Assembly (NCBI GenBank): GCA_016432445.1
Contig: CP066689.1
Coordinates: forward strand, 990,001-1,022,000
Source of the DNA: Candidatus Saccharimonadota bacterium
Lineage (GTDB): Bacteria > Patescibacteriota > Microgenomatia > UBA1406 > GWC2-37-13
Length of the DNA: 32,000 nucleotides
Direction: 5' to 3'
The notes under the pieces were generated by a model. The model saw nothing but the letters and a program-made list of their open reading frames with translations, was not told the origin of the DNA and did not search any database. Within the stretch, counting starts at the first letter, position 1. Every line of letters starts with the position of its first letter. Below, piece by piece: positions 11,101 to 29,420 of the stretch. The position numbers were made by a program, and so were the translations under genes.

Positions 11101-12347
11101 AAATTTCAGACATTGAATTTATAGCTACAGACACTAATAAAGGCAATTTATCTCTTTTAGATAAAAGCTCAGCCGATATCACTTTAAATCAAGGTCTTAT
11201 TCAAGGGTGGAACGAGTCCTCAACCCACATAGATATTAATGAAGGCACTGTTGTTGGAAGTCAGTCGAGTTCTTTTTATGTTGCTGATGACAGGGGCGGA
11301 GAGTATACCTTCTCAGACAGCGATGCTCTTCTTTTTGCAGGAGAAACTTTTAATAAATCAAAAGTTGATAGACCAAACGCAATCTTTACACTCCCCTCTC
11401 TTCCTAATGCAGAGGATATATTAACTACCGATGTCCCAAGTTTTAATGCCTATTATGCCGGTTTAGGCCGCATGATTTATGAAACACGCGGAACAAGATA
11501 TTTATTTGAAGAGGCAGTCAACGATAAACAAAAAGCCATAGCTATATTTGAAATTAGAGAGACTATTAATGAAGACGGAAAAAAAGAACATAAATTAACC
11601 TTTGTTGACGGAAGAAGAGTTGAAGATAAAGATGATCTAGTCGAAAGATTTATGTCTAAAACTAATGCTAATCTGCTTCAGCCTGAGTTGGAAGTAGCTT
11701 TAAATGATCTCTCTGCTCCTAAAGTAGAACCTAGTCCAGCTGCTAAAACTGAAGATAAGGATAAAGAAAGATTATCCCTTCGCCAACGGTTGGCAGGAAA
11801 ATTAAGATTAAGATTCGGAAGCCACGATTCTGAAGAAACACCTGAAAGGAAACAATTAAAAAAAGGCATAAAAAGTTTAGATGAACTTGCTGCCGTAATC
11901 GATCAAAACACAGAAAAATTTCATTTAACTAAAGAGCAGGAAGATCAATTAATTGAAGTTGACTATCCTAAGCATATTAATGATGGTTATCCAATCGAAG
12001 TTTTAGGAGACGTATTAATCAGCTGGACTCGCCTTTTTGAACCCCAAGTAGAAAACCATGAAGTGATTGAAAGAAAAAACGCTATTCTTCATGATTTAAT
12101 AGACAAAGTTTTTGGTGATAATCCGCCTGATCACCCCGCCATAGTAGCAGATCTTTTGGTTGATTTGTTTAAGGACGATATTATAAGTAAAAGATATAAA
12201 AAAGTAGCTGAGTATATAGAAAAAATTAATAAACCAGGCGTAAAATACGAACCTAACTCCAGTACTAAGAAGGAACTTCAGGCATTATTAAGTGCTTTGG
12301 ATATTACTTCAAAATATATTCCTTTTAGGTCTTCAACCCCTATTTAA
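8112..12347 (+). CDS. Giant (1411 aa) protein with no predicted TM segment, carrying repeated [LV]P-x-[WFY]-L motifs including an FtsZ C-terminal-peptide-like sequence; function unknown
   Basis: Uninterrupted 4.2-kb ORF with no hydrophobic segment. An acidic/Ala/Thr-rich, disordered-looking region (~nt 10380-11100) contains an Arg-rich stretch and the motifs KLPDWLF, ELPSWL and DDGELPAFLRNR. Further copies are ELPEWL (9459-9476) and NVPDYLK (8298-8318). Confidence 0.85.
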   Translation: MTEAINPSQENKTPSLENTVNRIVSPLSASTEGGLRLTPLNKELTIDQVKKATAFKVGDKETNVPDYLKENLQRILGLRPNTPISSQDQLKIVEHLLEEIAKNPIAVEKDIKSKLPDIGYKINIPEIIASLQVVGVEAAQQEYLSTQSTFTTKEVSAGWKTTDNTFGKGSRRKLYTEMSGFGDEVVLGGESMKGITKVGEKVVIEPTVEMDLRLAQVLFNTALPPEYSVKVAQLQQQVAAEKDPQLKDQKAHELTLLRQKLYKSVLVAFNTQTEKAGEIKAENNEKDEINSIADQIKKRMTEVKKGGLSLQHMDIQEANRASISETANYLGVSTEGQNLIDKGWENILMSVHAGEKMNVAVHRFLQDLAFENVSADNKNIFEKILANRLRTAMSISGIENYYKEYNVGIKPENISLSLFLSMGVKGTELLYRRTQGEEIIVKTPEPVKPELPEWLNPKIKLLKTEQPEQMADILKKLKEKSKDDESGIDEATAVAKPEIEEAIPIVQTASSEADSNKFNYRTLDLTFERHLPSNIPETEKSSVHEIGRNIVKAIVTETELGNLTENYRNVILNAAALNSANLLTPLIPGDERGKRLVTSKSQANKALAEKVLQAYTEAEPERIAHEGRKLSIEDFVEIKRTYDSLNYTPPTIESLLEGPLKGGAIPQQLLRGLVLQREFNRRFLDNSISLLSLPHEDRNFESLNLIAQMTALQIFKEIDLKTYHLTSHGPVPLTPNNTDLFLTWDRVKNTPAIEVVRFYNRPREPITEASSSAGPTIAVADQTEGETTGEEAVTYIPDETEEPYFDDQHAVRRETNRQRRAEREGKNKRERQKIRRPRRGPEEEVSPVNPPVVEATEEASAAVSAPSTERKLPDWLFMKEPESSAETNATVTTAEKRELPSWLTDEELIAKDRKIAEAQAAVATPTEAAEDIFAKLRRELDETDKKVASPDDGELPAFLRNRAQPSPEEHKETSAPAEAEAAVTIPSNEIKANETKQISDIEFIATDTNKGNLSLLDKSSADITLNQGLIQGWNESSTHIDINEGTVVGSQSSSFYVADDRGGEYTFSDSDALLFAGETFNKSKVDRPNAIFTLPSLPNAEDILTTDVPSFNAYYAGLGRMIYETRGTRYLFEEAVNDKQKAIAIFEIRETINEDGKKEHKLTFVDGRRVEDKDDLVERFMSKTNANLLQPELEVALNDLSAPKVEPSPAAKTEDKDKERLSLRQRLAGKLRLRFGSHDSEETPERKQLKKGIKSLDELAAVIDQNTEKFHLTKEQEDQLIEVDYPKHINDGYPIEVLGDVLISWTRLFEPQVENHEVIERKNAILHDLIDKVFGDNPPDHPAIVADLLVDLFKDDIISKRYKKVAEYIEKINKPGVKYEPNSSTKKELQALLSALDITSKYIPFRSSTPI

Positions 12348-12352
12348 CAATA

Positions 12353-13561
12353 ATGGAAAATTCTTCATCAACTTTATCTAGTACTGATAAAGGAGAAGTT
12401 CGTCGAGTCTTATCAATAGCAGAAAGGCTAAAAAATAATCCACCAAAAACTAAAGGGGAAAATCATTTTTCAGGTAGGTTTCGGCCGATTTATTCAGCCA
12501 AAGAAGAAAAAGAAAGAAATGCGGTGGTTGACCAGCCTAATAAAAGGCTTTTATTGAAGGCTATTGGCGCGGGCGCTATTCTTGCAGTTAGTGGAGGTTT
12601 AGCATTAAAAGCACTCGGTTCCGATAATACCCCCTCCGTAAGGGCCGAACCAAACCCATCAGCCATACCTTCACCCGCAGCAGAAACTACTGCTATAGCC
12701 GCAACTGAGAAACCTGAAACGACACCGGAGCCGCCTAAAGAAAGAGGCGGTATCCTTACCCCGGAAGAACTTGTTGACTATAGTCAGGTCATAGAATTCG
12801 TTGGCAAACTCCGGAATAGCCATGATTCGGTTTTATCCGAATCGCTTTTTACCAAAGAACTGGCAGGATTTTCTACTGAAAAACGTCAAGAAGTATTGAA
12901 AGCCATAGCCAAAGCTCATGCGCAAGCTCTTGTTGAATATTATGGAGATAATGAAGCTATTATTGGCCTTGATCCGGGTCATGGCTCATCTGATGTAGGT
13001 TCATCCGGAACAACCCCAGAAGGGAAAACTATCGCTGAAAAAGAACTCACCTGGGAAGTAAGTCAAATGTTAGCTGAAGAACTTAAAACTTTAAGCCATA
13101 ACCGTTATTTCATTGTTATTTTACGGCCTCACGATCCTCAAGACCGGGATTTAGATGGCGATGGAACAATTGCGCCGGTTGAAAGAATCCAAAAACGCAA
13201 GGCTTTACTTATGAAAATGGAACAAAAACTGCGCGATAAACCGGAAGATATAGGCAAAAATATTCTTTATTTATCAATGCATTTTAACGGATCATCCGAT
13301 CCAAATCAGGGCGGAGCCGAAATGTATTGGCCAAACAGCTTTGCCGTCAAAGATGATAATCATCGCCAAGCCAGTGAAGCACTAGCTAAAAGTATTCAAG
13401 ATAAAACCGTGACCGCAATTAGAAAAACTGGCTATAATACATTTGACCGCAAGGCAAAAGAAGATCCTGACAAAAATATGCCTACCGGTAACATAAGTCA
13501 AGTGGGGCCTTACCTAGTTCTGGGATCACCTCGTCTTGATAATCTTCTTCAAAAAGCCTAA
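12353..13561 (+). CDS. Membrane-anchored N-acetylmuramoyl-L-alanine amidase (Amidase_3 family)
   Basis: Amidase_3 signature: IGLDPGHGSSDVG (Zn His), EKELTWEV (Glu), YLSMHFNGS (Zn His), GAEMYW. It has an N-terminal cytoplasmic peptide, one TM segment (LLLKAIGAGAILAVSGGLALKAL) and a Pro/Thr/Ala linker. It starts 5 nt after the upstream gene. Confidence 0.85.
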   Translation: MENSSSTLSSTDKGEVRRVLSIAERLKNNPPKTKGENHFSGRFRPIYSAKEEKERNAVVDQPNKRLLLKAIGAGAILAVSGGLALKALGSDNTPSVRAEPNPSAIPSPAAETTAIAATEKPETTPEPPKERGGILTPEELVDYSQVIEFVGKLRNSHDSVLSESLFTKELAGFSTEKRQEVLKAIAKAHAQALVEYYGDNEAIIGLDPGHGSSDVGSSGTTPEGKTIAEKELTWEVSQMLAEELKTLSHNRYFIVILRPHDPQDRDLDGDGTIAPVERIQKRKALLMKMEQKLRDKPEDIGKNILYLSMHFNGSSDPNQGGAEMYWPNSFAVKDDNHRQASEALAKSIQDKTVTAIRKTGYNTFDRKAKEDPDKNMPTGNISQVGPYLVLGSPRLDNLLQKA

Positions 13562-13570
13562 ATTTAAATA

Positions 13571-14968
13571 ATGGAATACTCTGAGCGAGTCTTATCTATT
13601 GCTGAAAGATTAAAACAACCTCCGACTCCGCCAACTACGGCCGAAAGATTGAAACAAAGACAACAAGAAGGTCAAAGATCTTTACCTCAACTAAACCGTA
13701 TCTATTCAAAGGAAGAGTTAAAGCGGATGAATTACACTCCAATTCATCCAAAAACAGGAATAAAGATTGCTTTAGCTGGAATGACACTGCTGACGATTGG
13801 CTTAGCGGCCGAGGCTTCCCTTAATCCAACCGTCCCCACCGTAAGCGCTAATCCTGAACCAACACGACCCGCTCTAACCGCGACAGCCACCGCCTATAAA
13901 CCTCCTTTAGATATTATCTATCCCCCATCTTCCCCCACGGCTATCGCTGAAACTGCTGCCGCAGTCAATACACCTGAAATCAAAAAAAAGAAAGATCTTC
14001 TCAGTGAAGCCGCTCATTCATTTTATGCGAAAGCTCAAGCAAAACGAAATGAACGCGCAAAAAAAGATCCTGATTATCTTACCCGGATCAATCCTGAGTT
14101 AAATAAAAACCGGATTAATTTTCTGTCTCTGGGTATAGGTAAAGAAGGAGCTTTAACTGACTCCATTCAAGTTATATCTTATGATCTTACTTCAGGAAAT
14201 TTATCAATGATTTCCTTGCCGCGTGACCTTCAATCACCTGAAGTTCTTAAAGCTTATGGAGGAGACGAACGCAATTCCCGTATCAATCAGGCTTTAACCA
14301 AAGGCGGTATAGATCTTTCCCAGCTGGCGGTTGAAAATGCAACCGGCTTGTCTATGGATTTTGTGATGGTTAACCGCTTTGAAATCCTTACGAAAATTAT
14401 TGATAAAATTGGCGGGATAGAAGTCGATGTAGACAAGGATATTGATGATAATAACTATCCCGCTCTTGAAGGCGACGGCTATGACCCTTTCCATATTACC
14501 AAAGGCCATCACCTTTTAAATGGTTATGACGCTTTAAGATATTCCCGATCCCGTTACAGCACCAGTGATTATGACCGGTCTAAAAGACAACAAAAAGTGC
14601 TGGAAGCCCTTATTAAAAAATATGCCGAAGAAATGAAAAAAAATCCCTTAAAAGCAGCTGGCCTCATAAAAGATACTCTTGGCATCATTAATGAAGAAGT
14701 AAATAGCGGAAAACTGAAGGCTGATTTTGATATCGGCGATATTTCCGGACCCATTATTTCACTTATTCCCTCGCTTATTGGAGGCGCTCGTTTTGAAATG
14801 CCGCCAACCGCCCACTTTACGGTTGATACTTCAAACTTTGTCGTTAGCGCCTCTCTCCCGGGCATAGCCATAACCAAGATTAAGGGAGGCAATGCTCACT
14901 CTGGCAACCCACGGCAAGATTATTGGGGTCCATTACGTCCGGCTGTTAAAGAATTTCTTACACGCTAA
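13571..14968 (+). CDS. LytR-CpsA-Psr (LCP) family cell-envelope polymer transferase, membrane-anchored
   Basis: LCP core pattern: INFLSLGIGKEGALTDSIQVISYDLTSGNLSMISLPRDL...INQA...GG...VNRF...IGGIEVDV...LNGYDALRYSRSRY..SDYDRSKRQQKVL. It has an N-terminal peptide and one TM segment (IKIALAGMTLLTIGLAA). It starts 9 nt after the amidase stop. Confidence 0.85.
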   Translation: MEYSERVLSIAERLKQPPTPPTTAERLKQRQQEGQRSLPQLNRIYSKEELKRMNYTPIHPKTGIKIALAGMTLLTIGLAAEASLNPTVPTVSANPEPTRPALTATATAYKPPLDIIYPPSSPTAIAETAAAVNTPEIKKKKDLLSEAAHSFYAKAQAKRNERAKKDPDYLTRINPELNKNRINFLSLGIGKEGALTDSIQVISYDLTSGNLSMISLPRDLQSPEVLKAYGGDERNSRINQALTKGGIDLSQLAVENATGLSMDFVMVNRFEILTKIIDKIGGIEVDVDKDIDDNNYPALEGDGYDPFHITKGHHLLNGYDALRYSRSRYSTSDYDRSKRQQKVLEALIKKYAEEMKKNPLKAAGLIKDTLGIINEEVNSGKLKADFDIGDISGPIISLIPSLIGGARFEMPPTAHFTVDTSNFVVSASLPGIAITKIKGGNAHSGNPRQDYWGPLRPAVKEFLTR

Positions 14969-14969
14969 A

Positions 14970-15950
14970 CTACCCTTGCTGTCCACCACTATCTTTGGAG
15001 CTTTTATAAGCCATCCACATCATCATAAGAAGACCTGCTAAACCTATACCGCCGCCCTTTAGTATTCTTTTATTCCAATCTGGAATTTCAATTCTTAAGT
15101 CATTGTTAAGTTGTTTTGCCTGTTTATTATCCAAAATGCCCTTTTTTTTAAGTCCCTCTATTAAAGCTTTCCTGCTTTTCTCATCAGCTACGGCACTGTC
15201 TATAATATCATTAAGCAGTTTTAAAGGTCTATTTCTCCTATCCGCTGTTATCTCTCCGGCTATTTCTTCAACAAACTGGACTAACCGATCTGGAATATCT
15301 TGACCGTCTTTTTTAATTTCTTTTCTTTGAGTTTCAAGATTCTTTAGATTCTCATCCTCTTTGTTTTTTTTAGCAGTAAGTTCAAACAATCTTTTTTCTG
15401 CTACAGCTTTTTTTTCTGGAGTCTGATCAGGAAGATCACGCGCTTTTTCAACAAGCTGAATATTCTCATTAATCTGTATCAAACGTTCTCTTACTGAATG
15501 GATCTCAACATCGTATCCCAAAGCCTTATTTAGAGGATCAGAATCATTCTTCAGCTCATTAATTTGCGCGTCGGCAGCTTTTACTTTTTCCTCAAGCAGT
15601 TTATACCTTTGCTCTTGTTCCTTAGTTACGTTTTTCTTTCCGCTAATTTCTGCCATAGTGGCTTCTGCCGCCGCTCTAGTAATTACCGCCTCAAGCGGGG
15701 TAAATTTTTTTCCAGCAGCTTCTGCCTGATTTGTTTCAGCAGGAATTTCTGTTTGATCAATCTCCGTGAGACTTCCTCTTGCTTTATCTGGATCTTTAGT
15801 TCCTTCCTCGCATGCTTTTATCCATCTTTTTGTTACCGGATCTCTTTCTCGTTTCTTGGCATTTTCGCTCATCTTAGCTCTTGTTTCAGGTGATAACTCG
15901 CGCTTTGGTTTTGCTTCAGTTGTAAGCGGTCTTCCTGGTGTTTCTGCCAT
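14970..15950 (-). CDS. Tail-anchored coiled-coil protein with a basic N-terminus (NUMOD3-like LSPETRAKMSENAKKR motif)
   Basis: 326-aa ORF with a long heptad-like K/E-rich centre and a single C-terminal hydrophobic segment (GGGIGLAGLLMMMWMAY) followed by KSSKDSGGQQG. Its start lies 2 nt after the stop of the upstream 126-aa gene. Confidence 0.7.
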   Translation of the reverse strand: MAETPGRPLTTEAKPKRELSPETRAKMSENAKKRERDPVTKRWIKACEEGTKDPDKARGSLTEIDQTEIPAETNQAEAAGKKFTPLEAVITRAAAEATMAEISGKKNVTKEQEQRYKLLEEKVKAADAQINELKNDSDPLNKALGYDVEIHSVRERLIQINENIQLVEKARDLPDQTPEKKAVAEKRLFELTAKKNKEDENLKNLETQRKEIKKDGQDIPDRLVQFVEEIAGEITADRRNRPLKLLNDIIDSAVADEKSRKALIEGLKKKGILDNKQAKQLNNDLRIEIPDWNKRILKGGGIGLAGLLMMMWMAYKSSKDSGGQQG

Positions 15951-15952
15951 AA

Positions 15953-16333
15953 TTAGTTAGTGATTTTGAACATTAATACTTTTTTAACCATATCCTGAGC
16001 TTCATTATACTGGCCATTTTTAATCAAATGAGAGACCATCTCAATGGCTTTCTGCGAATATTTTTCTTCATACTCTTTCATCAGTTTATAAACCACTGGA
16101 GAAAGCTCTGAATATTGATCATCTAGCTTAACTGCATTTTGATACATCTCCTGAAGAGTCATCTCAGGTTTAACCAGCTCAAGGGTAGTATGGGCGATAG
16201 CTTGTATTCTTTCTTTGGGAGTGTCGCCCTTTTCCGCCAGCTGTTGAATGATTTTTAAAACTTCTACCTCAACAAATTTCCTAAAATCATCCTTATTTCC
16301 TGAAGTATTAACCTGTGCCTGAGAATCAGCCAT
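15953..16333 (-). CDS. Small (126 aa) helical protein of unknown function, co-oriented and apparently co-transcribed with 14970..15950
   Basis: The ORF has typical coding composition and is tightly spaced with the downstream gene. I recognise no family motif. Confidence 0.55.
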   Translation of the reverse strand: MADSQAQVNTSGNKDDFRKFVEVEVLKIIQQLAEKGDTPKERIQAIAHTTLELVKPEMTLQEMYQNAVKLDDQYSELSPVVYKLMKEYEEKYSQKAIEMVSHLIKNGQYNEAQDMVKKVLMFKITN

Positions 16334-17204: not shown

Positions 17205-20200
17205 CTATTTTGTTTCCTCAAACAACAAACCGGGCATGTGTTTTCTTCTTAAAGGTTTTGATAAAGTGTCAACATTCTGGAAAGTTTCAGTACGACTAGG
17301 TGTAAAACGGCGCATCTTTTTATATAAGGGTTCTATTCCATCTTTAAACGTATTTATACTAACAAACTGGCCTGTTGCTGGATCTTTTTCAAAATGTTTT
17401 CCGTAAAATTGAGTTCCCATTATCTCCGCACCCATTTTAGGAAGATCATTGGAGTCGTAACTAACTATCGAAGGCATCTCAACTAAACCTGTAGATTCAT
17501 CAAGCGGGATATTAAAATGGACCATTAAGTTAGACCTTACTTTTGCCTTTTCCTGCGGATTAGTAATCCAATACTCAGGATGTTTTTCCTTAGCTCTTTC
17601 CACTGCAGCCGCAATCTTTTTCATTGCTTTTGGATCTTTACCACGATTGTAAATTATTATATTATTGTTGTTGTAATGACTTTCTGGAGACTCTTGTAAC
17701 GCTCCATAGTATAAAGCTAAAGTCGTATAGGCCCAAACATCTTCGTTTTTTAACTCCTCAAATAAAGACAAATATGCTTCTGGAGCGTGGCGATTATGGA
17801 CATAAAAATAAACTCGGGTTATCGGCCGCTCTTTTTTTGTTTCTTCAGTTAATCCGCCAATTTGTAATTTTTCAACCTCCGTTGCATCACGACAAACAAA
17901 GGGAAGTTTTTTGTCAGCTCCATATTCTTGTGGCATTTCTTTTCTTAGTTTTTCAACTCTGTCTAAAGCTTCTTTGTTAAGCCTAACTACTTCATCTTTC
18001 TCTATTGGCGACGGATCGCCTGTTTCTGCTTTTAATCTGTTTATCTCAGCCATTTGGTATTCAATCATTTGGGCATACGATATATTATTTAAAGCTCTTC
18101 GATATTTTTCATAGCCAACCCTTTGGATCTCCTCAAAGCCCCGACCGGCGATAACATTTTCCATATCAACTTCATCTTTAAACTCAGGAAAAATAGATTC
18201 GGCAATGGCAATGGTTTTCTCCCAATACTCTTTCATTTTCACCTCATCATCCAAACCATAGCCTCGTCCAAATTGGCGCAAGTTCTTTTTTTGTTCTTCA
18301 GTAATAGTCTTTGATCTTAGGAATTTATTAAGTATAGGAATTACTTCTTTTTGTTTAGCCAATGGTAAACCATCAAACTTTTGACGAAGTTCCTTTAAAC
18401 GATCTTCATAAAAACCCAATGTTTGGTCATTAATTGATAATGTATAACCGCCATCTCTTAAATATTGGGTAATGGCCAGTGAATCATCTATTTTCATTAA
18501 TTTTTCAACATTGGGCTCATTTGTTACCTTTTGATAAAGAGGATAACCATTCTTATACGGGTAAAGAGGGTCATCAGATTTTTTAGGTTTAATTAAATTC
18601 TTAAACCCGATTATATCTTGATTAAGATATTGTGTAGGCACCCAATGTATAAACCCTCCTAAGGCTAACTGCTTTAAAATATTCCCATGAGATTCTACAG
18701 CCCAAATATTACCAGGTACAGAATCACTGTCTTGAGTCCTTCCAAAAGGCGTTGGGGCTTTAATAATTGTAAAAGCGTTACCATTTTCAATCTCTTGAGG
18801 AGTAAATTTAGTAGCATCTTCAGCGTACATAACAACAGTCCTTTCTCTCCCGCCCCAATCAAATTTAACTACTCTTTTTCCCCCTTTACCTAAAATTCCT
18901 TCTGTTTCATCTGAAATTATTTTTCCACCAATTTTTTGTATTGTTTCATCAGGAAGATAATCATTCCTTAAAGAACCATCTTCATTTATATACACATAAT
19001 CAGTAAAGACAAACTTATCAGCATTAGTAAATGCTAGAGAATAGGCGATATCGCGTCCTGAGCCGGGATAGTAAACCGGTAAACCATTTTTTATAACCTC
19101 AGAATTAGCCGCAATATCTCTGATTTGAGAAGCATTTTCCCATAATTCTTTCGTCGTAAACCATGAAGGATTATCCTTTAGTTTTTCCCAATCAGCATCT
19201 GGTGTTTCTTTATATTCTCTTCGTGGTTTGATTCTGATTCCAAAGTCCTGCTCGAATTTTTTCAATCCCTCTATCTCTTCAGGTTTCAAATCAGATCTAA
19301 AACCATTACAAAGTAGCCCCATATACAATGAATACCCTACGCAGTTAATATTATCGTGCGGCTTTTGAAGTACTGGAAAAGCGTTATCTGGCAAATCTTG
19401 GATTAAATCATAACTTTCGCCTGAACAAATCTTTTCAATTAATTTTGGATTAGTCTTTATTTCCCACTCCTTTCTATCAATTTTAATATTTAGGTTTAGG
19501 CCACGATATACGCCATCCGCTTGTTTATGCGCATGGACAAAAGGATTATGAGCTTCATCAAATTCATCAGCTATTAGCTCCGTTTTACCCTTATATGGGT
19601 CATAAGTTATCAATCTCCATTTGCCGTTAACATCCTTCGTCGGTGCCTTTAATAGAAAAGTCTGATGCCACATTCGTTGTCCCTGACCATTCAATATAGC
19701 CATAGGAAGATTGTATCTTTCAGCTGCATTAAATACTGCGTTTTGATCCATTAATCCCCGCGGATTAGGCACTAACCATCTATTAATAAAAGCTCCAACA
19801 TCAGTTATTTCATCACTATTTCTTAATTGTTGGATAAAGGCTTCTGCTCCGCGCTTAATACTTTCCGGATCATCAGCGGAGATCTCAATAATCTCCTTTT
19901 TTGTTTCATCTTCTTTTGTTTTCGTTCGATTTTCTTTTTGCTGAGTTTTTGATGTCGTAATCTCTCCCGTTCTACCATTCCATACGAAAGTTAGTAATCT
20001 TTTTTCTTCATCTGTTAATCTATTGATTTTAGATTTTTCTTGGGTTTCAACTTGAGTCTTTTCATTAACTTGGGTGATAAATGCTTGGCGTAAATCAGTT
20101 TTTTGAACTTTAACTTCAGCATCAATAAGCTGAGTTAAAACTTCAGATGACGTACCCCCAAAGATTTTGGCTATCCATTTGATAGCCGGAAGATCTTGTT

Positions 20201-20717
20201 TTAACTTCTCATAATCTATATTTTGCCCATCAGCATAGGCCTGAACCACCTTACTAATAAATGTTTGAACTTGAGACGCTTTATTATCCCCTTGGAAATA
20301 AGTTGAGTATAGATTTTCAGCGTCATTAATTGTAAATTGCTGTGAGTTTATTCCTATCTTCTCAAAAAATTTATCCCATCCAGCATTGTTGAAATACTCT
20401 TTTGAAGTTTGAAAAGCTGAGGTAGTTTGTTCAAGCCATAATTTCTTTTGCGCTTCAAAACCTTGTACATTTTGACCTCTCCAATAATCTTTTCTTTCCC
20501 TAGTTGAAGCAGTAGATAAATATTTGTAAGTGGTTTGTTCTCTTACCACAAGACTAACTGAGAGTGAGTTCTCATCCAAGTCAGGCATATCATGATCTGG
20601 ATTTAGTGCTTGTCCTCCAAGAAGCAGTCTTGACTGTAAACCAATTAACCCTTTTTTAAACTGAAGCCGTTCAGGTATTTTTAATGCATCAGGAGCTGGA
20701 ACAGGATTCTCTGACAT
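17205..20717 (-). CDS. Giant (1170 aa) multidomain protein: central CE-clan cysteine-protease-like domain, a Rossmann-like GxG module, and a C-terminal module shared with the 2236-aa protein
   Basis: Uninterrupted 3.5-kb ORF. Candidate catalytic residues are His351 (MWHQTFLLK), Asp373 (LITYDPY), Gln451 and Cys459 (LQKPHDNINCVGYSLYMG; Cys codon = complement of 19341-19343). The Rossmann-like motif is VYYPGSGRDIAYSLAFTNADKFVFTDY. The C-terminal module begins ITRVYFYVHNRHAPEAY...IIIYNRGKD. Confidence 0.85.
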   Translation of the reverse strand: MSENPVPAPDALKIPERLQFKKGLIGLQSRLLLGGQALNPDHDMPDLDENSLSVSLVVREQTTYKYLSTASTRERKDYWRGQNVQGFEAQKKLWLEQTTSAFQTSKEYFNNAGWDKFFEKIGINSQQFTINDAENLYSTYFQGDNKASQVQTFISKVVQAYADGQNIDYEKLKQDLPAIKWIAKIFGGTSSEVLTQLIDAEVKVQKTDLRQAFITQVNEKTQVETQEKSKINRLTDEEKRLLTFVWNGRTGEITTSKTQQKENRTKTKEDETKKEIIEISADDPESIKRGAEAFIQQLRNSDEITDVGAFINRWLVPNPRGLMDQNAVFNAAERYNLPMAILNGQGQRMWHQTFLLKAPTKDVNGKWRLITYDPYKGKTELIADEFDEAHNPFVHAHKQADGVYRGLNLNIKIDRKEWEIKTNPKLIEKICSGESYDLIQDLPDNAFPVLQKPHDNINCVGYSLYMGLLCNGFRSDLKPEEIEGLKKFEQDFGIRIKPRREYKETPDADWEKLKDNPSWFTTKELWENASQIRDIAANSEVIKNGLPVYYPGSGRDIAYSLAFTNADKFVFTDYVYINEDGSLRNDYLPDETIQKIGGKIISDETEGILGKGGKRVVKFDWGGRERTVVMYAEDATKFTPQEIENGNAFTIIKAPTPFGRTQDSDSVPGNIWAVESHGNILKQLALGGFIHWVPTQYLNQDIIGFKNLIKPKKSDDPLYPYKNGYPLYQKVTNEPNVEKLMKIDDSLAITQYLRDGGYTLSINDQTLGFYEDRLKELRQKFDGLPLAKQKEVIPILNKFLRSKTITEEQKKNLRQFGRGYGLDDEVKMKEYWEKTIAIAESIFPEFKDEVDMENVIAGRGFEEIQRVGYEKYRRALNNISYAQMIEYQMAEINRLKAETGDPSPIEKDEVVRLNKEALDRVEKLRKEMPQEYGADKKLPFVCRDATEVEKLQIGGLTEETKKERPITRVYFYVHNRHAPEAYLSLFEELKNEDVWAYTTLALYYGALQESPESHYNNNNIIIYNRGKDPKAMKKIAAAVERAKEKHPEYWITNPQEKAKVRSNLMVHFNIPLDESTGLVEMPSIVSYDSNDLPKMGAEIMGTQFYGKHFEKDPATGQFVSINTFKDGIEPLYKKMRRFTPSRTETFQNVDTLSKPLRRKHMPGLLFEETK

Positions 20718-20733
20718 AAAATAAATATAACAT

Positions 20734-20763
20734 AGATATTCGATGATCGAATGTCGAATATCT
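20734..20763. promoter_or_regulatory. Perfect 10-bp inverted repeat (AGATATTCGA-n10-TCGAATATCT) between the galT stop and the 1170-aa gene start; a terminator or an operator
   Basis: Arms at 20734-20743 and 20754-20763, with an extra TCGAAT copy at 20747-20752. On the minus strand it is followed by the T-rich CTATGTTATATTTATTTT, which runs directly into the ATG at 20717. Confidence 0.4.
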
Positions 20764-20783
20764 AAGATTTTAAGATTAAAGAT

Positions 20784-21668
20784 CTAATATCTTTTTAGTT
20801 TTTTCATCACATCCGCCACTCTCTCATCCTCTCCCCTAAGTGCTGATGCCGCATCAATAGGATCAATGACATTAACCGATAAACCTGTGCCAAGTTCAAA
20901 ACCGGCCCGATGAATAAATCGCGGAATGACCCGAAGATACCAATTTTCTTTTGGATAAATGTAAAAATTGTAACCAAAAGGAATGATATTCCATTTACTG
21001 TCCTCTTTATGAATTTTTTTTAAACGTTTGATTATTTTTTTTAAAAGTTCAGCAATATCTTCGATTTCCTTATCATCAATATCACCAAAAACTCCCTCCT
21101 TTTTTTTGGGTGCCAGCCAAACCTCATAAGGCCATTGAGAAAATTCCGGACAATAAACATGGAAATATTTGTTTTCATTAATAACATTATGCAAAGGTTC
21201 ACTTGAGACCAAGTCCAAATTTATCTGAAAAGGAATAACCACAAGCTGTGAATGAGAATGTTTCACCGAAGCTCCAGCATGCTCCCCATGATTACAAAAG
21301 ATCATTACCTCTCCTTTTTCTTTGTAAAAATTAAATCGTGCTTTATAGGTTTGAAAAATGAGGGTAATCTCACTTAAAGAAAAGCTGTCAATATCTTTTT
21401 CATGATCTGGCGAATGAATAATGACTTCATGAAAATCCGTAATCGGAAATTTATTGGGAATGACTCTAACTTTCCATCCTGGTTTGTCTTTTTCCCCCTC
21501 CCCCATACGAAAAACTTCAGGGCCAGTCACCTTTTCATTGCCTGGACAAAAAGGACAGTTTAATTTAGAGTCATCAGACTCACTGGGGCGATGCAATCTA
21601 TCTGACGCAATTAAAGCCCACCTTCGCGAGGATATATCAGGAACATATTTAGACATAATAAATTTCAA
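20784..21668 (-). CDS. galT: Galactose-1-phosphate uridylyltransferase-like (GalT/HIT superfamily) nucleotidyltransferase
   Basis: Zn-site CPFCPGNE and active-site HSHSQL (the HxHxQ motif of GalT). The start is ambiguous: the first 4 codons overlap repeat copy 2, so the ATG at 21656 (MSKYVPD) may be the true start. Confidence 0.75.
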   Translation of the reverse strand: MKFIMSKYVPDISSRRWALIASDRLHRPSESDDSKLNCPFCPGNEKVTGPEVFRMGEGEKDKPGWKVRVIPNKFPITDFHEVIIHSPDHEKDIDSFSLSEITLIFQTYKARFNFYKEKGEVMIFCNHGEHAGASVKHSHSQLVVIPFQINLDLVSSEPLHNVINENKYFHVYCPEFSQWPYEVWLAPKKKEGVFGDIDDKEIEDIAELLKKIIKRLKKIHKEDSKWNIIPFGYNFYIYPKENWYLRVIPRFIHRAGFELGTGLSVNVIDPIDAASALRGEDERVADVMKKLKRY

Positions 21669-21746
21669 ATGTCAAAGCTCAAATTTAAAAATCCAAATTC
21701 CAAACATTCATTTGATATTTGTCATTTGACATTTGGATTTGACATT
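21665..21746. repeat. Intergenic 'word' palindrome, family A copy 2
   Basis: AAATGTCAAA (21667-21676) is complementary to TTTGACATTT (21725-21734). AAATCCAAAT (21689-21698) is complementary to ATTTGGATTT (21731-21740). The two right arms overlap, so the two pairings are mutually exclusive. It lies between divergent genes. Confidence 0.85.
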
Positions 21747-21803
21747 CTGACTATATTTTAACCTTACCTAAAATAATTTTTAAAATCAATTATAATTTGC
21801 TTT

Positions 21804-22379
21804 ATGAAACTGCTTATCGGTTTAGGTAATCCAGGAAAAAAATATATAAATAACCGTCATAATGTGGGGTTTATGTTTGTTGATTACATCATTAACTCTG
21901 TTAACCAAAATTTTGACTTAAAAAAAGATAACAAACTTAAAGCTAACGTTTATAAACTCAAGTTTAATGGTGAAGATTTCATTGTTGCTAAGCCTCAAAC
22001 TTTCATGAATCTTTCAGGTAATGCCGTTCAAAAAATAATTTCAAATTTCAAATTACAAATTTCAAATTTAATCGTTGTTCACGATGATTTGGACATTCCT
22101 TTAGGTAAATTTAAAATCCAAAAAGGAGTTGGTCCTAAACTTCATAACGGCTTAACGTCAATTGAAGAAAGCCTAAAAACAAAGGATTTCTTAAGAATCC
22201 GCATTGGTGTTGAAAATAGATCTGAAGAAAATAGATTGCCCGGAGAAGCCTATGTTCTCCAAGACTTTACTACTGAAGAGAAGGAAATAATTACTAAAGT
22301 CTTTGAAGAAATACGTAAAAAGCTAATTGATTCAAGATTCATGATTCAGGATTCAAGAGGTTTTATTCATGAATCGTAA
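21804..22379 (+). CDS. pth: Peptidyl-tRNA hydrolase
   Basis: Canonical Pth motifs: LIGLGNPGKKYINNRHNVGF, MNLSGNAV, VVHDDLDIPLGKFKIQKG, HNGLTSI. TATAAT at 21791-21796 lies 7 nt before the ATG. The last ~16 codons (DSRFMIQDSRGFIHES) are encoded by a palindromic repeat. Confidence 0.9.
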   Translation: MKLLIGLGNPGKKYINNRHNVGFMFVDYIINSVNQNFDLKKDNKLKANVYKLKFNGEDFIVAKPQTFMNLSGNAVQKIISNFKLQISNLIVVHDDLDIPLGKFKIQKGVGPKLHNGLTSIEESLKTKDFLRIRIGVENRSEENRLPGEAYVLQDFTTEEKEIITKVFEEIRKKLIDSRFMIQDSRGFIHES

Positions 22380-22396
22380 ATCTTGAATCATGAATC
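22329..22396 (+). terminator. Imperfect AT-rich hairpin built from GATTCA/TGAATC words, spanning the pth stop codon; candidate terminator
   Basis: GATTCATGAT (22336-22345) pairs with ATCATGAATC (22387-22396), and TCAAGA (22353-22358) pairs with TCTTGA (22381-22386). An ATTCATGAAT palindrome sits in the loop. The pth stop is at 22377-22379. The downstream sequence is moderately T-rich. Confidence 0.35.
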
Positions 22397-22462
22397 ATCT
22401 TACCTTTCTCTTACCCACTTCTTATTGAAAAACTAACATTTTTTTTTATAGTTTCTCAACAT

Positions 22463-23683
22463 ATGAAAATACTTTATCTTTACATGTTTCCCTTATGGGG
22501 TAATGGCTCAGGCGCTTGGCTAACCAGACTCGTACATAAACTCAAGCTCCTTTATGAACAAGATTTTGAAGCCGCTATCATTGCACCTGATCATAGGACT
22601 CTTGATGACGCTAAAATCTTTAGAGCCATACCTCCTTTTACTGGCGTATTTGTAGGTAATCCCGAGCTCCCCAATGCCAAAAGATATATGGACATCTCTA
22701 ACTCTCAGCATCTTTTTATTTATAACTACTATCTCCAACTAACTACTAAATCTATTGAAAAATTTAAACCTGACCTCATTCATGCTTTTCATACTGCTTT
22801 TCTTCCTCCGCTTGCCAGACAGATAAGTGATTTTTACAAAATTCCCTTTATTATCTCCACTCACGGCAGTGATCTTTACTATTTTAAAGAAGATTATCGC
22901 TGGCGATCACAGGTAAAAGATGCATCAATCCGTGCCAAATTCATTATTGCCAACAGCAACTTTACAAGAAACTGGTATCTGCAGATGTTTGGCCGCGATC
23001 TATATCGAAAAATGAAAACTATCCCTGCCGGTATTGATAACAATATTGATTTTTCCAAAGATGTTTCCTGGATAGATGAAAAATATCATTTTACTTTTCA
23101 AAAGATGGTTCTTTTTACAGGCAGACTAACCAAACACAAAGGTGTCGATTACCTTATCAAAGCCGCAAGACAGATCAAAGCTGAGATTGTAATCTTAGGT
23201 GATGGACCTGAAAGGGGATATCTTGAGAAACTTATTAAGCAATGCAACCTGCAAAATGTTCATATGCTTGGATACTTCTCTCAACGACTTGGTGCCATAA
23301 ATGACTTTTATCTTAGGGCTGATGTTTACGTTGCTCCAAGTGTCTGGGATGAACCCCTGGGTTTAGTAATCCTAGAGGCTATGGCTTATAAAACTCCTGT
23401 TATTGTCACAAGAAAAGGCGGCGTCACTACTATTGTTAAAGATGGATTAAATGGACTTTTAGTTAGACCAAGAAGCGCAAACATTATTGCCCAACAAGTC
23501 AACTATTTGCTTAAAAATGATAAAATACGTCTGAAAATGAGTGAAAACGCTTATAAAACCGTGCTTAATAAATTCAGCTGGGAAAAAATCGCCGCCAAAT
23601 TTTACCATCTTTACCAAAAATCAACAAATCTAAAAAATATAACGATTATAACTTTTATAACAATTATAACCGTTATACGATGA
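22463..23683 (+). CDS. Glycosyltransferase family 4 (GT-B, retaining type)
   Basis: GT4 pattern: FTGRLTKHKGVDYLIKA...ILGDGPE...VYVAPSVWDEPLGLVILEAMAYKTPVIVTRKGG...DGLNGLLV. The C-terminal tail NITIITFITIITVIR is encoded by the TTATAAC repeat. It has an ATGA overlap with the next gene. Confidence 0.85.
   Translation: MKILYLYMFPLWGNGSGAWLTRLVHKLKLLYEQDFEAAIIAPDHRTLDDAKIFRAIPPFTGVFVGNPELPNAKRYMDISNSQHLFIYNYYLQLTTKSIEKFKPDLIHAFHTAFLPPLARQISDFYKIPFIISTHGSDLYYFKEDYRWRSQVKDASIRAKFIIANSNFTRNWYLQMFGRDLYRKMKTIPAGIDNNIDFSKDVSWIDEKYHFTFQKMVLFTGRLTKHKGVDYLIKAARQIKAEIVILGDGPERGYLEKLIKQCNLQNVHMLGYFSQRLGAINDFYLRADVYVAPSVWDEPLGLVILEAMAYKTPVIVTRKGGVTTIVKDGLNGLLVRPRSANIIAQQVNYLLKNDKIRLKMSENAYKTVLNKFSWEKIAAKFYHLYQKSTNLKNITIITFITIITVIR
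23633..23679. repeat. TTATAAC-word element, copy 1 (24 nt identical to 30906-30929)
   Basis: The sequence is AAAAATATAACGATTATAACTTTTATAACAATTATAACCGTTATACG. TTATAACAATTATAACCGTTATAC at 23655-23678 equals 30906-30929. It ends immediately before the ATG at 23680. Confidence 0.85.
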
Positions 23684-25167
23684 TTAAATATTTATTTATC
23701 ACCTACGGACAAGCTGGATGGCGCGGTGTTCAGATGAGAGCTTTGCGAATAGCCAATTATTTTAACAAAAGTGAGGTTCTTTTTTGGAATCTTTATGACA
23801 GCAGTCTGATTGAAGAATGGGGCTTTGCAGTAGAAAACAAGCCCTCTGGTTTAGTTTTGTCTAACGATATTGTTTTTCCTAAAGAAACAGAAGTAGTAAT
23901 TTTTGCGGATATTCCCACTAACGAATTTTTTCAGTATAGCGTTTATCAGGCCGCTATTCAAAAAAAGATTAAGATTGTTATCTGCGATCAGCTTTACCGG
24001 CGCGAACAGATGAAAGAAGGTGTCTTTAAAATGCTTGCTGAAAACTGTGATTTATTTCTCCTTAATTCACTTTCTTTTTTAAATAACGAATCAAACTCAA
24101 ACATAAAAATTCTACCTCCTCAGATTGAACATAATTTCAAGAAAAAGGATAAAAATTACATTTGTCAAAAATACGGAATTCCCTTAAATGCAACGATATT
24201 ATTCGGGTCAGGTTATCATCCAAGATTATATAAAAAGATCAAGTTATTTACTCAAAGGCTTTCTGTCTATTATAAGCAATTTTATACGATAGTCTCTGCA
24301 CCTAAAAGTTTGCAGAAAGTTAAAAAAGAAGGCCATTTGATTACTATTCCTTTTGTCAACGGTGAAGAATATTTTAAACTGCTTTATGCTGTCGATATCG
24401 TTCTTGTTAAATTTGGCTTTCTACAGATCCTTGAATCGCTGGCGTTAAATAAACCCACTGTTGTTTTAGGAGAAGCCGGTAAACTTTTACAAGATAAGTC
24501 GGTAATTGACCCTACTTTGCGAAGAGCTCTTAAACTGAATTTAAAAAATGACGATGAACTATTCAATTATCTTAAAAAATTAGTTATAGATCAAAGCTAT
24601 CGGAAAAAAGTTATCCAGGAAAATAAAAAACTTCATAATGGAGTTTTCTTTGGAGCTAAAAAAGCCGCGTCAGAAATTAAAAAGCTTGTTGAAAATAAAC
24701 AGTTTTTAAGAAAAATCTACCCAAATAAAATTGCTATTCTTATCAATCAAGAGATATTTGAATACAAACAATGGCTTGCTGAGGAAAAAAATATTTATCC
24801 TTTGTGCATTTTATGGTCAATGCCTAACGGTTTGGAAGTTATCAAACGCCTGCCTAAACCTTTGCTAAATAAAACCGTAAAAGATTTTCAAATAAAACAA
24901 AAAGACGAGATTCTTCCTCATTCATTTAAAAATATTTTTATTTTCTCACCCCGCAAATATGACGGCTTTACCAGTATCCCTTCCTGGTACAATCATTGGC
25001 TAGAACAAATTCATTCCTCCATCTTAAAAGCCGATGAAATATATATCTCAAAAGACGGATTGAAAATTTTTAATGGAATGCTCAATAGCTTTAAAGACAG
25101 ACTCAAACTTTTAGATAACAAAATAAAAATTACCAATGACAGTTTCAGTAATTATTCCAGCTTATAA
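23680..25167 (+). CDS. Hypothetical protein (495 aa), possibly GT-B-fold glycosyltransferase-like; family not recognised
   Basis: Long ORF, translationally coupled (ATGA) to the upstream GT4 and overlapping the downstream GT2 by 32 nt. I see only a vague GT-B-like pattern (ILESLALNKPTVVL). Confidence 0.6.
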   Translation: MIKYLFITYGQAGWRGVQMRALRIANYFNKSEVLFWNLYDSSLIEEWGFAVENKPSGLVLSNDIVFPKETEVVIFADIPTNEFFQYSVYQAAIQKKIKIVICDQLYRREQMKEGVFKMLAENCDLFLLNSLSFLNNESNSNIKILPPQIEHNFKKKDKNYICQKYGIPLNATILFGSGYHPRLYKKIKLFTQRLSVYYKQFYTIVSAPKSLQKVKKEGHLITIPFVNGEEYFKLLYAVDIVLVKFGFLQILESLALNKPTVVLGEAGKLLQDKSVIDPTLRRALKLNLKNDDELFNYLKKLVIDQSYRKKVIQENKKLHNGVFFGAKKAASEIKKLVENKQFLRKIYPNKIAILINQEIFEYKQWLAEEKNIYPLCILWSMPNGLEVIKRLPKPLLNKTVKDFQIKQKDEILPHSFKNIFIFSPRKYDGFTSIPSWYNHWLEQIHSSILKADEIYISKDGLKIFNGMLNSFKDRLKLLDNKIKITNDSFSNYSSL

Positions 25168-26068
25168 CAGAATCAAACAAACTCTTAAAACGGTTGATCT
25201 CGTCATTTCTTCGTATGTAAAAGATTATCAGATGGAAGTTATTGTTACCGACTGTTCTCCTGATGATAAACTGAAACAAGCCTTAACTAAAAAATTTAAT
25301 AACAAAATTATCTATACCAGACCAACAAAACCTGGTATTTCAACCAATAAAAATCAAGGCGCAAAAAAAGCCAAAGGAGAAATCTTAATCTTCTGCGACT
25401 CAGATATCGAGGTTGAAAACGAAACTATACATAATACTTTGCAGGCTTTTAAACAACACCCGCGGGGTGCTGGAGTAGGCGGTCTGGTGATTTGGAAGGG
25501 CGGAAAAAAAGATGGAGAAGTTGACCGGCCAGAAAAAAACGACCGTATTTTTAAGTATAAAAATACCTCTTATATTGAAGTTATTTACTCCCGCTATTTT
25601 GCGACTTATAAAGATATCTTTCATAAAGTCGGAGGCTATGATGAGGTACTTTTTAATATGAGAGGCGAAGGCGCTGATTTATCAACCCGCTATTGGCGCG
25701 CTGGTTTTCCACTTGTTTATAATAAATTAATTAAAGTCTTTCACCGTTATAATTTAAACGATTCCCAAGCCACAAGGACTCCTTATCCTCAACAGGATAT
25801 TGCCAAAGATTTTCTGATTTTAGCCTACAAATATAATATGCATGAGAAACCTTATCCTCATTTTTCCTTGGTTATGCACCGCTATTTTAAACAGTTTGGC
25901 ATCAATAACCAGGCTGAGTTTTTAAAAGGCATCTTAAAACATCTTGATCTCATAGCTTCAGTTAAACCGTACTTAGATGAAAACAAATTAAAAAATGATT
26001 TATATGATTTTAAATTTTTAGAAGTTTTCTCTAATAAAAAACTCTTGAGAGAATGCCTTAATTTATGA
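25136..26068 (+). CDS. Glycosyltransferase family 2
   Basis: N-terminal VSVIIPAYNR, a DxD motif (FCDSDIEV) and GGYDE: the classic GT2 layout. Confidence 0.85.
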   Translation: MTVSVIIPAYNRIKQTLKTVDLVISSYVKDYQMEVIVTDCSPDDKLKQALTKKFNNKIIYTRPTKPGISTNKNQGAKKAKGEILIFCDSDIEVENETIHNTLQAFKQHPRGAGVGGLVIWKGGKKDGEVDRPEKNDRIFKYKNTSYIEVIYSRYFATYKDIFHKVGGYDEVLFNMRGEGADLSTRYWRAGFPLVYNKLIKVFHRYNLNDSQATRTPYPQQDIAKDFLILAYKYNMHEKPYPHFSLVMHRYFKQFGINNQAEFLKGILKHLDLIASVKPYLDENKLKNDLYDFKFLEVFSNKKLLRECLNL

Positions 26069-26697
26069 ATGATTTAAAAGAGTTTACAACTCATATCTGG
26101 ACTTTACGTCATGCCCCTACCCTTTTTACTATCCAAGGAAGACTGCAGGGGACAAAAGACGTGGATATTTTACCTAATAAAACTGATGCCTATTTTAACA
26201 AAATCAAAATTAAACGGCTTCCTAAACCCGATGTTATCATTACTTCATCTTTAAAAAGAACTAAACAAACTGCTAAAGCTTTAAAAAAATATCTAAACTG
26301 GCCAAAAACTATTCCTGTTATAAAAAAAAAGAATTTAAATGAAAGATCTTTGGGAATTCTCGAGATCAAAACTCACTTCCAGGTAAAAAAGCTTATTCTT
26401 TACGGTATTATAACTGTATCTCAGCCTTTAAGCTATATTGAAAAGCTAGAAGATTTATCTGAAATTTTAGAAACTCCTCATTTTAAGTTTGTGGGTATAG
26501 AGTCAATGGATGAAGTACGAATCCGCGGCGAAAAAGCTTTGTTTGAAATAGCGTCCCTTTATCCCAATACAAAAATTGTATTGATAAATCATTACGCTGT
26601 CCTTAAATCACAAGGACTAAATCCGCACAAAATTTGCCACCTTATAATCTCCAAAGACTCACAAGGCATATTTCACAAAAAGATTACGAACTGTTAA
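26065..26697 (+). CDS. Histidine phosphatase superfamily (phosphoglycerate-mutase-like) protein
   Basis: RHG-type motif IWTLRHAPT, ITSSLKRTKQTAKAL, and a distal His in LINHYAVL. It has an ATGA overlap with the upstream GT2. Confidence 0.7.
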   Translation: MNDLKEFTTHIWTLRHAPTLFTIQGRLQGTKDVDILPNKTDAYFNKIKIKRLPKPDVIITSSLKRTKQTAKALKKYLNWPKTIPVIKKKNLNERSLGILEIKTHFQVKKLILYGIITVSQPLSYIEKLEDLSEILETPHFKFVGIESMDEVRIRGEKALFEIASLYPNTKIVLINHYAVLKSQGLNPHKICHLIISKDSQGIFHKKITNC

Positions 26698-26698
26698 A

Positions 26699-26795
26699 TA
26701 ATGTCAAAATCCAAATGTCAAATGTCAAATGTTTTGAAATTTGAAATTGGGATTTTGGATTTGATTTGATATTTGGATTTTGACATTTGGATTTT
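26699..26795. repeat. Intergenic 'word' palindrome, family A copy 3; candidate bidirectional terminator between convergent genes
   Basis: A perfect 15-bp inverted repeat: ATGTCAAAATCCAAA (26701-26715) and TTTGGATTTTGACAT (26772-26786). More AAATGTCAAA and TTTGGATTT words lie between the arms. It overlaps the stop codon of the GH1 gene (26794-26796). Confidence 0.85.
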
Positions 26796-28176: not shown

Positions 28177-28256
28177 AAACCAAGTCTAAGAGAAGCACAT
28201 TAAAAAACTGTAAGATTAAGGTAAGTATAAAGTAAGGCCAGAACGCCTCTGGCGGC

Positions 28257-28285
28257 TTGACTTAAAAAATAGATTTTGGTATATT
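28257..28285 (+). promoter_or_regulatory. Sigma70-like promoter with extended -10, for the DUF218 gene
   Basis: TTGACT (28257-28262), a 17-nt spacer ending in TGG, then TATATT (28280-28285). The ATG at 28309 lies 24 nt downstream. Confidence 0.5.
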
Positions 28286-28308
28286 AATATTCTCACCTTA
28301 AAATCTTT

Positions 28309-29373: not shown

Positions 29374-29420
29374 CCATTTACTATTTTTTAATATATTGTT
29401 ATATAATAGTCTTCAGCACT

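Follow-up and report, generated by a model that had tools for sequence, protein, structure and literature searches.

A putative papain-like cysteine peptidase of a new family in modular proteins of Candidatus Roizmanbacteria

Enzymes with a papain-like core always have their catalytic cysteine at the N-terminus of a helix, and the families in which the sheet comes before that helix make up a 'permuted helix' group, with clan CE as cluster VI within it; the permutation arose repeatedly in the superfamily, and an oxyanion-hole residue is typical of its peptidase and deubiquitinase clusters while usually absent from the deamidase and transglutaminase clusters (PMC10318531). The subject here is a domain with such an order in a protein of 1170 residues, the product of open reading frame (ORF) P0001 (HYW86_05185), which is annotated as a hypothetical protein in a metagenome-assembled genome (MAG) of Candidatus Roizmanbacteria. 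The gene lies in a stretch of 32,000 nucleotides (contig CP066689.1, positions 990,001 to 1,022,000) that was analysed as a whole and is termed the window. An earlier note on this DNA had taken the linear order His-Asp-Gln-Cys (H-D-Q-C) in P0001 as the signature of a clan CE protease related to Ulp1 and deubiquitinases. The domain is classed here as a new papain-like family, permuted-helix in its order, that Pfam, NCBIfam and the PDB do not describe, and the preferred reading, with a probability of roughly one half, is that it serves as a trans-acting cysteine-protease payload of exported, modular, effector-like proteins.

Several described systems come close. Clan CE (C48, C5, C55, C79 with ElaD and SseL, and ChlaDUB) shares with the domain the linear order His, Asp/Asn/Glu, Gln, Cys, a Gln about 6 residues before the Cys, a Cys helix after the sheet and frequent use as a module of bacterial effectors, but its His-Asp distance, about 17 in Ulp1 by the figure of the earlier note, differs from the 20-23 of the domain. 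Staphopains (MEROPS C47, clan CA) have a His-Asn distance of 21, against 20-23, and likewise an oxyanion Gln 6 before the Cys. They are Sec-secreted zymogens with staphostatin inhibitors, whereas the proteins with the new domain have no signal peptide and no inhibitor-like neighbour gene was noticed. PPPDE/DeSI C97, YiiX/YaeF C92 and LRAT-type NlpC/P60 proteins also have a His before the catalytic Cys, but are generally Cys-His dyads or His-His-Cys and lack a Gln-x5-Cys oxyanion motif. In architecture the likeness is to polymorphic toxins and modular effectors (those with LXG and a type VII secretion system, MARTX, and type VI effectors with N-terminal delivery domains; 10.1101/2023.07.16.549128): an N-terminal domain that is conserved while the enzymatic cassettes behind it recombine, paralogues in tandem, a conserved small accessory gene, and cassettes that occur also in other large proteins. 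In contrast to these, the N-terminal domain here has what is, by its model, a new fold, the organism is a bacterium of the candidate phyla radiation (CPR), no cassette-specific immunity gene is downstream, and the candidate apparatus is an array of VirB2-like pilin genes or a type IV secretion system (T4SS) rather than a type V, VI or VII system.

The domain and its catalytic residues

P0001 is laid out as an N-terminal domain (N-domain), the cysteine-peptidase-like domain, module A and module B, and has 4 Cys and 15 His in all. Its parts, in window positions, are as follows.

17205 to 20717, minus strand: P0001, the 1170-residue ORF.
19953 to 20717, minus strand: N-terminal 'carrier' domain, residues about 1-255, all-alpha by its AlphaFold2 model (predicted local distance difference test, pLDDT, 92.8).
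19203 to 19865, minus strand: predicted cysteine-peptidase domain, residues 285-505, with the order H-D/N-Q-C, from conservation and an AlphaFold2 model.
19665 to 19667, minus strand: codon of His351, the predicted general base, in strand 66-71 of the domain model.
19599 to 19601, minus strand: codon of Asp373 (a position with Asp, Asn or Glu in family members); the residue closes the next strand, and the near-invariant Pro374 comes after it.
19365 to 19367, minus strand: codon of Gln451, the predicted oxyanion-hole residue, 8 before the Cys in P0001 and 6 in most members.
19341 to 19343, minus strand: codon of Cys459, the predicted nucleophile, which starts helix 175-188 of the domain model.
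18168 to 19196, minus strand: module A, residues about 508-850, with invariant LPVYYPG..D and FVF.D motifs.
17208 to 18167, minus strand: module B, residues about 851-1170, HopA1-like, especially at 17580-17840.

The region flagged in the earlier note, residues 300-500, corresponds exactly to window positions 19218 to 19820. A first search for homologues of P0001 gave three relatives only (P0002, P0003 and P0004), with P0002 matching it in the N-terminal ~260 residues and in the flagged region, H, D, Q and C all being aligned, and P0003 and P0004 matching in the N-terminal part alone. When 1.84 billion representative proteins were searched exhaustively with HMMER, a profile made from the P0001 domain and P0002 yielded 339 proteins at E<=1e-3, among which three blocks of P0002 recur independently; the module counts given here were made with local domain hidden Markov models (HMMs) among the 150 matches listed of those 339. 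At least 46 of these proteins carry the cysteine-peptidase domain, with 45 full copies at 20-35% identity. A second copy is in the window itself, where tblastn with relatives of P0001 located it at the left edge (nucleotides 16-603, plus strand) as part of the paralogue P0008 (HYW86_05140), whose gene begins upstream of the window, directly after that of P0004 (HYW86_05135; L004:2505-4598). In it His is encoded at nucleotides 112-114, Asn (where P0001 has Asp) at 172-174, Gln at 430-432 and Cys at 454-456.

The four residues had been located correctly, His351 within GQRMWHQTFLLK, Asp373 within WRLITYDPY, and Gln451 and Cys459 within LQKPHDNINCVGYSLYMG, as mapping of the codons shows, and so had the His-to-Asp spacing of 22. 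Neither are they lost in homologues, 44 or 45 of the 45 copies retaining each. The best-conserved columns of the family are those of C459, Q451, H351, P374 and P338: the His column has H in 44 of 45 copies, the Gln and Cys columns are each kept in 44, as are those of Pro374 and Pro338, and the Asp373 column has D in 32, N in 12 and E in 1. A MAFFT alignment of 32 sequences has H, P, Q and C as its only invariant columns. From His to Asp/Asn the distance is 20-23 in 43 of the 45 copies (22 in P0001), and from Gln to Cys it is 6 in 34 copies, 7 in 2 and 8 in 9, P0001 being among the last, with the segment from Asp to Gln ranging in length from 51 to 120 residues. The deviant copy, in P0126 (residues 388-627), has Gln for the His, Leu for the Gln and Ser for the Cys, and its Pro after the Asp is gone; it is probably, to judge by these substitutions, a pseudo-enzyme derived from the peptidase domain, and a joint loss of H, P, Q and C is what would be expected if these residues act as one unit.

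For residues 285-505 the AlphaFold2 model, built from an alignment of 35 sequences, has pLDDT 88.7 and a predicted template modelling score (pTM) of 0.87; in it three helices are followed by strands 56-61, 66-71, 83-89 and 93-102, a variable insert, a loop with Gln167, helix 175-188 and a final helix. His67 of the model (His351) is within strand 66-71, Asp89 (Asp373) closes strand 83-89, Cys175 (Cys459) opens helix 175-188 and Gln167 (Gln451) is on the loop preceding that helix. As modelled, then, the cysteine is at the start of a helix and the His and the third polar residue are on consecutive strands, which is the papain-like placement. In 44 of the 45 aligned copies a predicted oxyanion Gln comes shortly before the Cys, as in the papain-like core, and its retention argues for peptidase or isopeptidase chemistry. 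On the papain paradigm Cys459, at the helix N-terminus, would be the nucleophile and His351, on its beta-strand, the general base, while Asp373, a position that relatives fill with Asp or Asn, would orient His351 from the next strand, and Gln451 would form the oxyanion hole.

Relation to clan CE, staphopains and other families

When P0001 is scanned against Pfam at E<=10, the only matches are DUF6865 and, far downstream, a weak one to HopA1, and the flagged region is unmatched; NCBIfam gives noise only for P0001, phmmer against PDB sequences gives nothing, and scans of P0001 and its relatives against PADLOC and PHROGs give nothing significant for the cysteine-peptidase domain. The check that had been proposed for the clan CE assignment, with the Pfam models Peptidase_C48 (PF02902), C5 (PF00770), C55 (PF03421) and C57 (PF03290), likewise gives no match at E<=10 in P0001 or in 32 members. 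Matching the family profile to 177,635 PDB sequences at E<=10 brings up no CE protein at all. A fold superposable on Ulp1, SENP or adenain would be expected of a CE member, but the top 50 Foldseek hits in the PDB and BFVD, from alignment that is sequential, include no Ulp1, SENP, ChlaDUB, adenain, poxvirus protease or African swine fever virus protease. Membership of clan CE is rejected on the outcome of these Pfam, PDB-profile and Foldseek searches, and a relationship to Ulp1 and deubiquitinases has no support in sequence or Foldseek searches; what stands of the earlier proposal is the kind of active site, the residue order and the permuted-helix topology class. The domain also has a C-terminal F..DFG motif of its own. 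No CE sequence aligned to the family, so no CE counterpart of that motif is identifiable.

The one sequence resemblance that the family profile brings up in the PDB, a marginal one, is to staphopains, which are all three of its best matches (1Y4H, E=0.004; 1CV8, 0.11; 8OIG, 0.14). The Gln-Cys block of the domain aligns with the N-terminal Gln-Cys block of staphopains, and on through '..LLNA.K..DT', and its 'HA...YDP' block aligns with their C-terminal 'HA...WNP' block, so that the order of the blocks is swapped and a relation to staphopains would be one of circular permutation. A circularly permuted version of the family profile is colinear with staphopain, but its E-value is unchanged, and the permutation link is suggestive only. 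The alignments thus hint at circular permutation of a C47-like ancestor. Assignment to C47 itself is not supported, the order of the Gln-Cys and His-Asn blocks being reversed, PF05543 matching none of the 32 members and no staphopain being matched by Foldseek. The HMMs of PPPDE/DeSI C97, YiiX/YaeF C92 and LRAT-type NlpC/P60 also have no match in P0001 or the 32 members, and the domain can be placed neither in CE nor in any other described family.

Shared N-terminal domain, shuffled payloads and gene neighbourhood

The proteins are strings of independent modules with low-complexity linkers between them, and they constitute a modular family in which a conserved N-terminal domain is accompanied by at least six payload modules in varied combinations and orders. 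At least 122 of the proteins have the N-domain, and in 117 of these it begins no later than residue 20; its model, of about 250 residues, is all-alpha and finds no match in Pfam, PDB sequences or Foldseek. For both the cysteine-peptidase domain and the N-domain, confident AlphaFold2 models are without a fold match. The two are together in at least 30 proteins, and the cysteine-peptidase domain stands alone, in proteins of ~250-330 residues, in 16 of the 46 that have it. Elsewhere it is internal, C-terminal (P0002, P0005, P0007, P0008) or present in 2-3 tandem copies (P0006, P0019, P0069).

The commonest payload, found in 32 proteins including P0004, is a module of ~400 residues with an invariant PHEYTH and, downstream, RG..L.E (HExxH), which by these motifs looks like a gluzincin-type metallopeptidase. 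A further module, in 13 proteins including P0008 (residues ~280-550), P0025, P0034, P0036 and P0006, has the invariants Glu...His-x-His...(12 residues)...Ser-x-x-Asp, a pattern that resembles the motif of JAMM/JAB metalloisopeptidases, and it accompanies the cysteine-peptidase domain in P0008 and P0006. Neither this JAMM-motif module nor the HExxH module has a Pfam match. Module A recurs in P0039, P0035, P0066, P0022, P0093 and P0025; by eye its 'LPVYYPG..D' followed by 'FVF.D.Y' is like a Rossmann-type loop for binding a nucleotide or S-adenosylmethionine plus an acidic end of beta2. Module B recurs in four proteins, with the order in P0039 being B-A. The HopA1 family (PF17914) consists of type III effectors from plant pathogens; P0001 module B matches it at residues 960-1046 with a score of 13.3 bits, which is under the gathering threshold of 22.7 bits, but homologues of module B that are 37-38% identical exceed that threshold in the same region of the profile (P0038 with 24.4 bits and P0076 with 22.9 bits); in all, 5 of 70 family members have HopA1 matches, the best with E=7.7e-8. 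Profile searches of PDB sequences with module A, module B, the HExxH module and the JAMM-motif module gave no credible match. Domains of the DEAD/HA2 helicase, ABC1 kinase or M54/M13-like kind occur in single members.

The starts of the proteins have features of their own. M-x-E followed by a Pro-rich stretch, often with 'SPE(R/K)', begins 82 of 150 family proteins; stand-alone cysteine-peptidase proteins, which lack the N-domain, begin 'MPEGES...'; and a PxPAPD motif is common to P0001 ('PVPAPD', window 20676-20717) and a giant protein of 2236 residues encoded in the window ('LPLPAPD'). From their sequence such start motifs may be a short recognition signal.

Other genes of the window that bear on the family are the following.

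1 to 615, plus strand: C-terminal end of the 791-residue paralogue P0008 (HYW86_05140), with the second cysteine-peptidase-like copy; the full gene is L004:4657-7032.
667 to 1164, minus strand: small partner of 165 residues, helical with a Pro-rich tail, homologues of which adjoin N-domain genes in other loci.
1241 to 7951, minus strand: leaderless giant protein of 2236 residues, with syntenic giant ORFs in L013, L014 and L016.
8112 to 12347, plus strand: leaderless giant ORF of 1411 residues, without any match at all.

A pattern scan of a genome collection with the N-domain gave 7 loci. Adjacent N-domain paralogues occur not only here (P0004 and the 791-residue gene) but also in L007, L008/L014, L013 and L016, and the succession of N-domain genes, small partner and giant protein recurs across loci. 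Homologues of the small partner, 27-62% identical, adjoin N-domain genes in L009, L011, L013, L014, L016 and L017, one of them with a weak DUF5663 match, and the partner is kept whatever payload the neighbouring N-domain genes carry; from this pattern it may serve as an adaptor or chaperone and not in immunity. The 2236-residue giant is 30% identical to the L016 giant ORF over 1341 residues and has two modules (residues ~1760-2005 and 2047-2234) in common with N-domain proteins. Neither giant ORF of the window gives a Pfam match; those beside N-domain genes in L014 and L017 have PP2C, Metallophos or APH domains.

Roizmanbacteria are included in the class Microgenomatia. VirB2 arrays are especially abundant in Microgenomatia, and patescibacterial T4SS, which are chromosomal, mostly lack relaxases, have components that the one species tested needs for epibiotic growth, and have no protein substrates named in the same study (PMC12102498). 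Three independent contigs have 3-4 tandem genes for T4SS_pilin (PF18895, VirB2-like) just upstream of their N-domain arrays, at L007:1577-4527, L016:2759-4717 and L017:7288-9233, in each case with a Trans_reg_C gene preceding the pilin array, and L016 also encodes a PrgI-domain protein, from 22606. No pilin arrays were seen in L013, L010 or L004. Neither P0001 nor its family relatives have a signal peptide or transmembrane (TM) segment, with a TM-like stretch in only 3 of 152 proteins.

Some further observations on the loci may be added. In L010 the genes for surface proteins with cohesin, dockerin and fn3 domains (L010:1419-5590) lie upstream of N-domain genes and are divergent from them, and a gene for 470 residues upstream of P0004 (L004:646-2058) has a weak, sub-threshold dockerin match of 20.2 bits. 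The named members of the family are all Roizmanbacteria. The closest relatives of the window locus are in MAGs labelled 'uncultured Gammaproteobacteria' (L007-L010, L012 and L014), where the small partner is 54-62% identical to that of the window, as against 27-29% in named Roizmanbacteria; probably the label is wrong, or else there was recent transfer. Within the window the GC content is 0.36-0.42 in the module-rich positions 1-16000 and 0.33-0.36 in positions 20000-32000, the housekeeping right half with genes for Pth, glycosyltransferases, GH1 and trehalose-6-phosphate synthase; the contrast may stem from a separate origin or from amino-acid composition. Neither a tRNA nor an integrase gene occurs in the window.

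Weighing the readings, and what they mean

The large effector-type proteins are probably deployed by the ultra-small Roizmanbacteria against other cells. In the preferred reading of a trans-acting payload, the leaderless proteins would be exported, most plausibly by the patescibacterial T4SS whose pilin arrays are often encoded nearby, and the peptidase module would cut peptide or isopeptide bonds in proteins of another cell, host or competitor, in trans. Several observations weigh against this. T4SS substrates usually have C-terminal signals and the conserved part here is N-terminal; a recognisable secretion signal was not found; pilin arrays adjoin in 3 of the ~7 loci with enough flank, and in this genome none was seen over the 2.5 kb upstream of the two paralogues. 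The P0001 gene itself lies among ordinary genes, and is followed not by an immunity-like gene but by a convergent gene for a zinc-ribbon/TM protein. As regards the peptidase assignment, the similarity of the family profile to staphopain sequences is marginal, and Foldseek searches with the domain model found nothing at E<=1e-3 either in the PDB, where the best of the top 50, at 0.074, were unrelated folds, or in BFVD.

Other functions have been considered for the same features. A true clan CE isopeptidase or acetyltransferase, acting on ubiquitin-like modifiers of bacterial conjugates or of a eukaryotic host, would suit the H-D-Q-C order, the Gln 6 before the Cys in most members and the permuted-helix class (PMC10318531), and also the company of a JAMM-like E..HxH..SxxD module, as in JAB isopeptidases, in the paralogue and 12 other proteins, and of a HopA1-like payload, known from effectors aimed at eukaryotes; it is nevertheless improbable, with the absence of a CE match in Pfam, PDB-sequence profile and Foldseek searches, with His-Asp distances of 20-23 that are nearer the 21 of staphopain than the 17 quoted for Ulp1, and with no gene for a ubiquitin-like protein, E1 or E2 seen in the window. 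Permuted papain-like amidases are known in the NlpC/P60 cluster (PMC10318531), genes for Amidase_3 and LytR are 4-7 kb off in the window, and the gene of the stand-alone protein P0134 adjoins genes for Peptidase_M23, SH3_3, MurB and VanW/PG_binding, all of which would fit a cell-wall amidase or endopeptidase (of NlpC/P60, CHAP or type VI Tae-like kind) that acts on peptidoglycan stems of the host or of the producer. That is a poor prospect, however: the NlpC_P60, CHAP, Peptidase_C92 and LRAT models are unmatched in P0001 and 32 members, there is no signal peptide with which to reach the cell's own wall, neighbouring genes vary across loci, and the 'GD' strand motif of that cluster (PMC10318531) is, judged by eye, missing from the family.

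Autoprocessing in cis, with the domain freeing payloads after delivery in the manner of the cysteine protease domain of MARTX and TcdB or of the pre-toxin peptidases of polymorphic toxins, finds some encouragement in P0001, where the N-domain precedes the domain, two more payloads follow it and linkers are of low complexity. As the main role it is unlikely because there are multi-payload proteins without a cysteine-peptidase domain (P0039, P0035, P0022 and P0025) and because the domain is mostly a C-terminal module or in 2-3 tandem copies, and in 16 of 46 proteins is stand-alone at ~250-330 residues. A conserved domain with variable enzymatic modules is the logic also of intracellular conflict and mobile-element systems, whether anti-phage defence or 'polyvalent proteins' of conjugative elements or phages, in which a sensor or packaging domain would be fused to variable effector modules, this protease among them, and there would be no export; in keeping with this are the DEAD/HA2 helicase and ABC1 kinase payloads of single members, an HTH_17/MerR gene upstream of P0004, the higher GC content of the module-rich left part of the window (0.36-0.42 versus 0.33-0.36) and the lack of signal peptides. 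Yet neither PADLOC nor PHROGs gives a match; IMG/VR (by pattern scan), the phages of INPHARED and the plasmids of PLSDB gave no relatives; the window lacks integrase and tRNA genes; there is no NTPase or sensor domain; and the loci are chromosomal and syntenic across genomes. Such a system, though rather unlikely, is a serious competitor of the preferred reading. That no curated protease model matches the domain would be expected if the four residues were a chance pattern or the domain a non-catalytic scaffold. In a family at ~25% identity, though, they are the top conserved columns, they are lost jointly in one degenerate copy and they fall on canonical secondary-structure elements of the AlphaFold2 model; a chance motif is rejected on its conservation across 45 copies, and this last explanation altogether is very improbable.

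A broader possibility, which can be put forward only tentatively, is that there is in Microgenomatia a previously unrecognised repertoire of polymorphic effectors associated with T4SS, of which the present domain would be a host-directed protease payload. It would comprise more than 120 clusters of leaderless proteins with a novel all-alpha delivery N-domain, shuffled cassettes that mostly lack a match in Pfam, the PDB or Foldseek (three putative peptidase types, a HopA1-like module, module A and others), and a gene neighbourhood in which a conserved small adaptor and giant multi-enzyme proteins are encoded too and VirB2-like pilin arrays lie upstream.

Neither the catalytic logic nor the architecture of modular effectors is without precedent; it is the cysteine-peptidase family, the N-domain and most of the cassettes that are new with respect to Pfam, NCBIfam and the PDB. 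For annotation the lesson is that the residue order H-D-Q-C is on its own insufficient for a label of 'Ulp1-like deubiquitinase', and the surrounding modular system is more interesting than that label. From the cysteine-peptidase module, the N-domain and several cassettes the papain-like superfamily would gain new families and perhaps a further, independent case of helix permutation. For the exploitation of hosts by CPR bacteria (Patescibacteria), a leaderless modular family whose payloads are mainly putative proteases and whose genes lie beside T4SS pilin arrays offers concrete candidates, and the broader repertoire, if true, would account for the substrates still missing for the relaxase-less T4SS of Patescibacteria.

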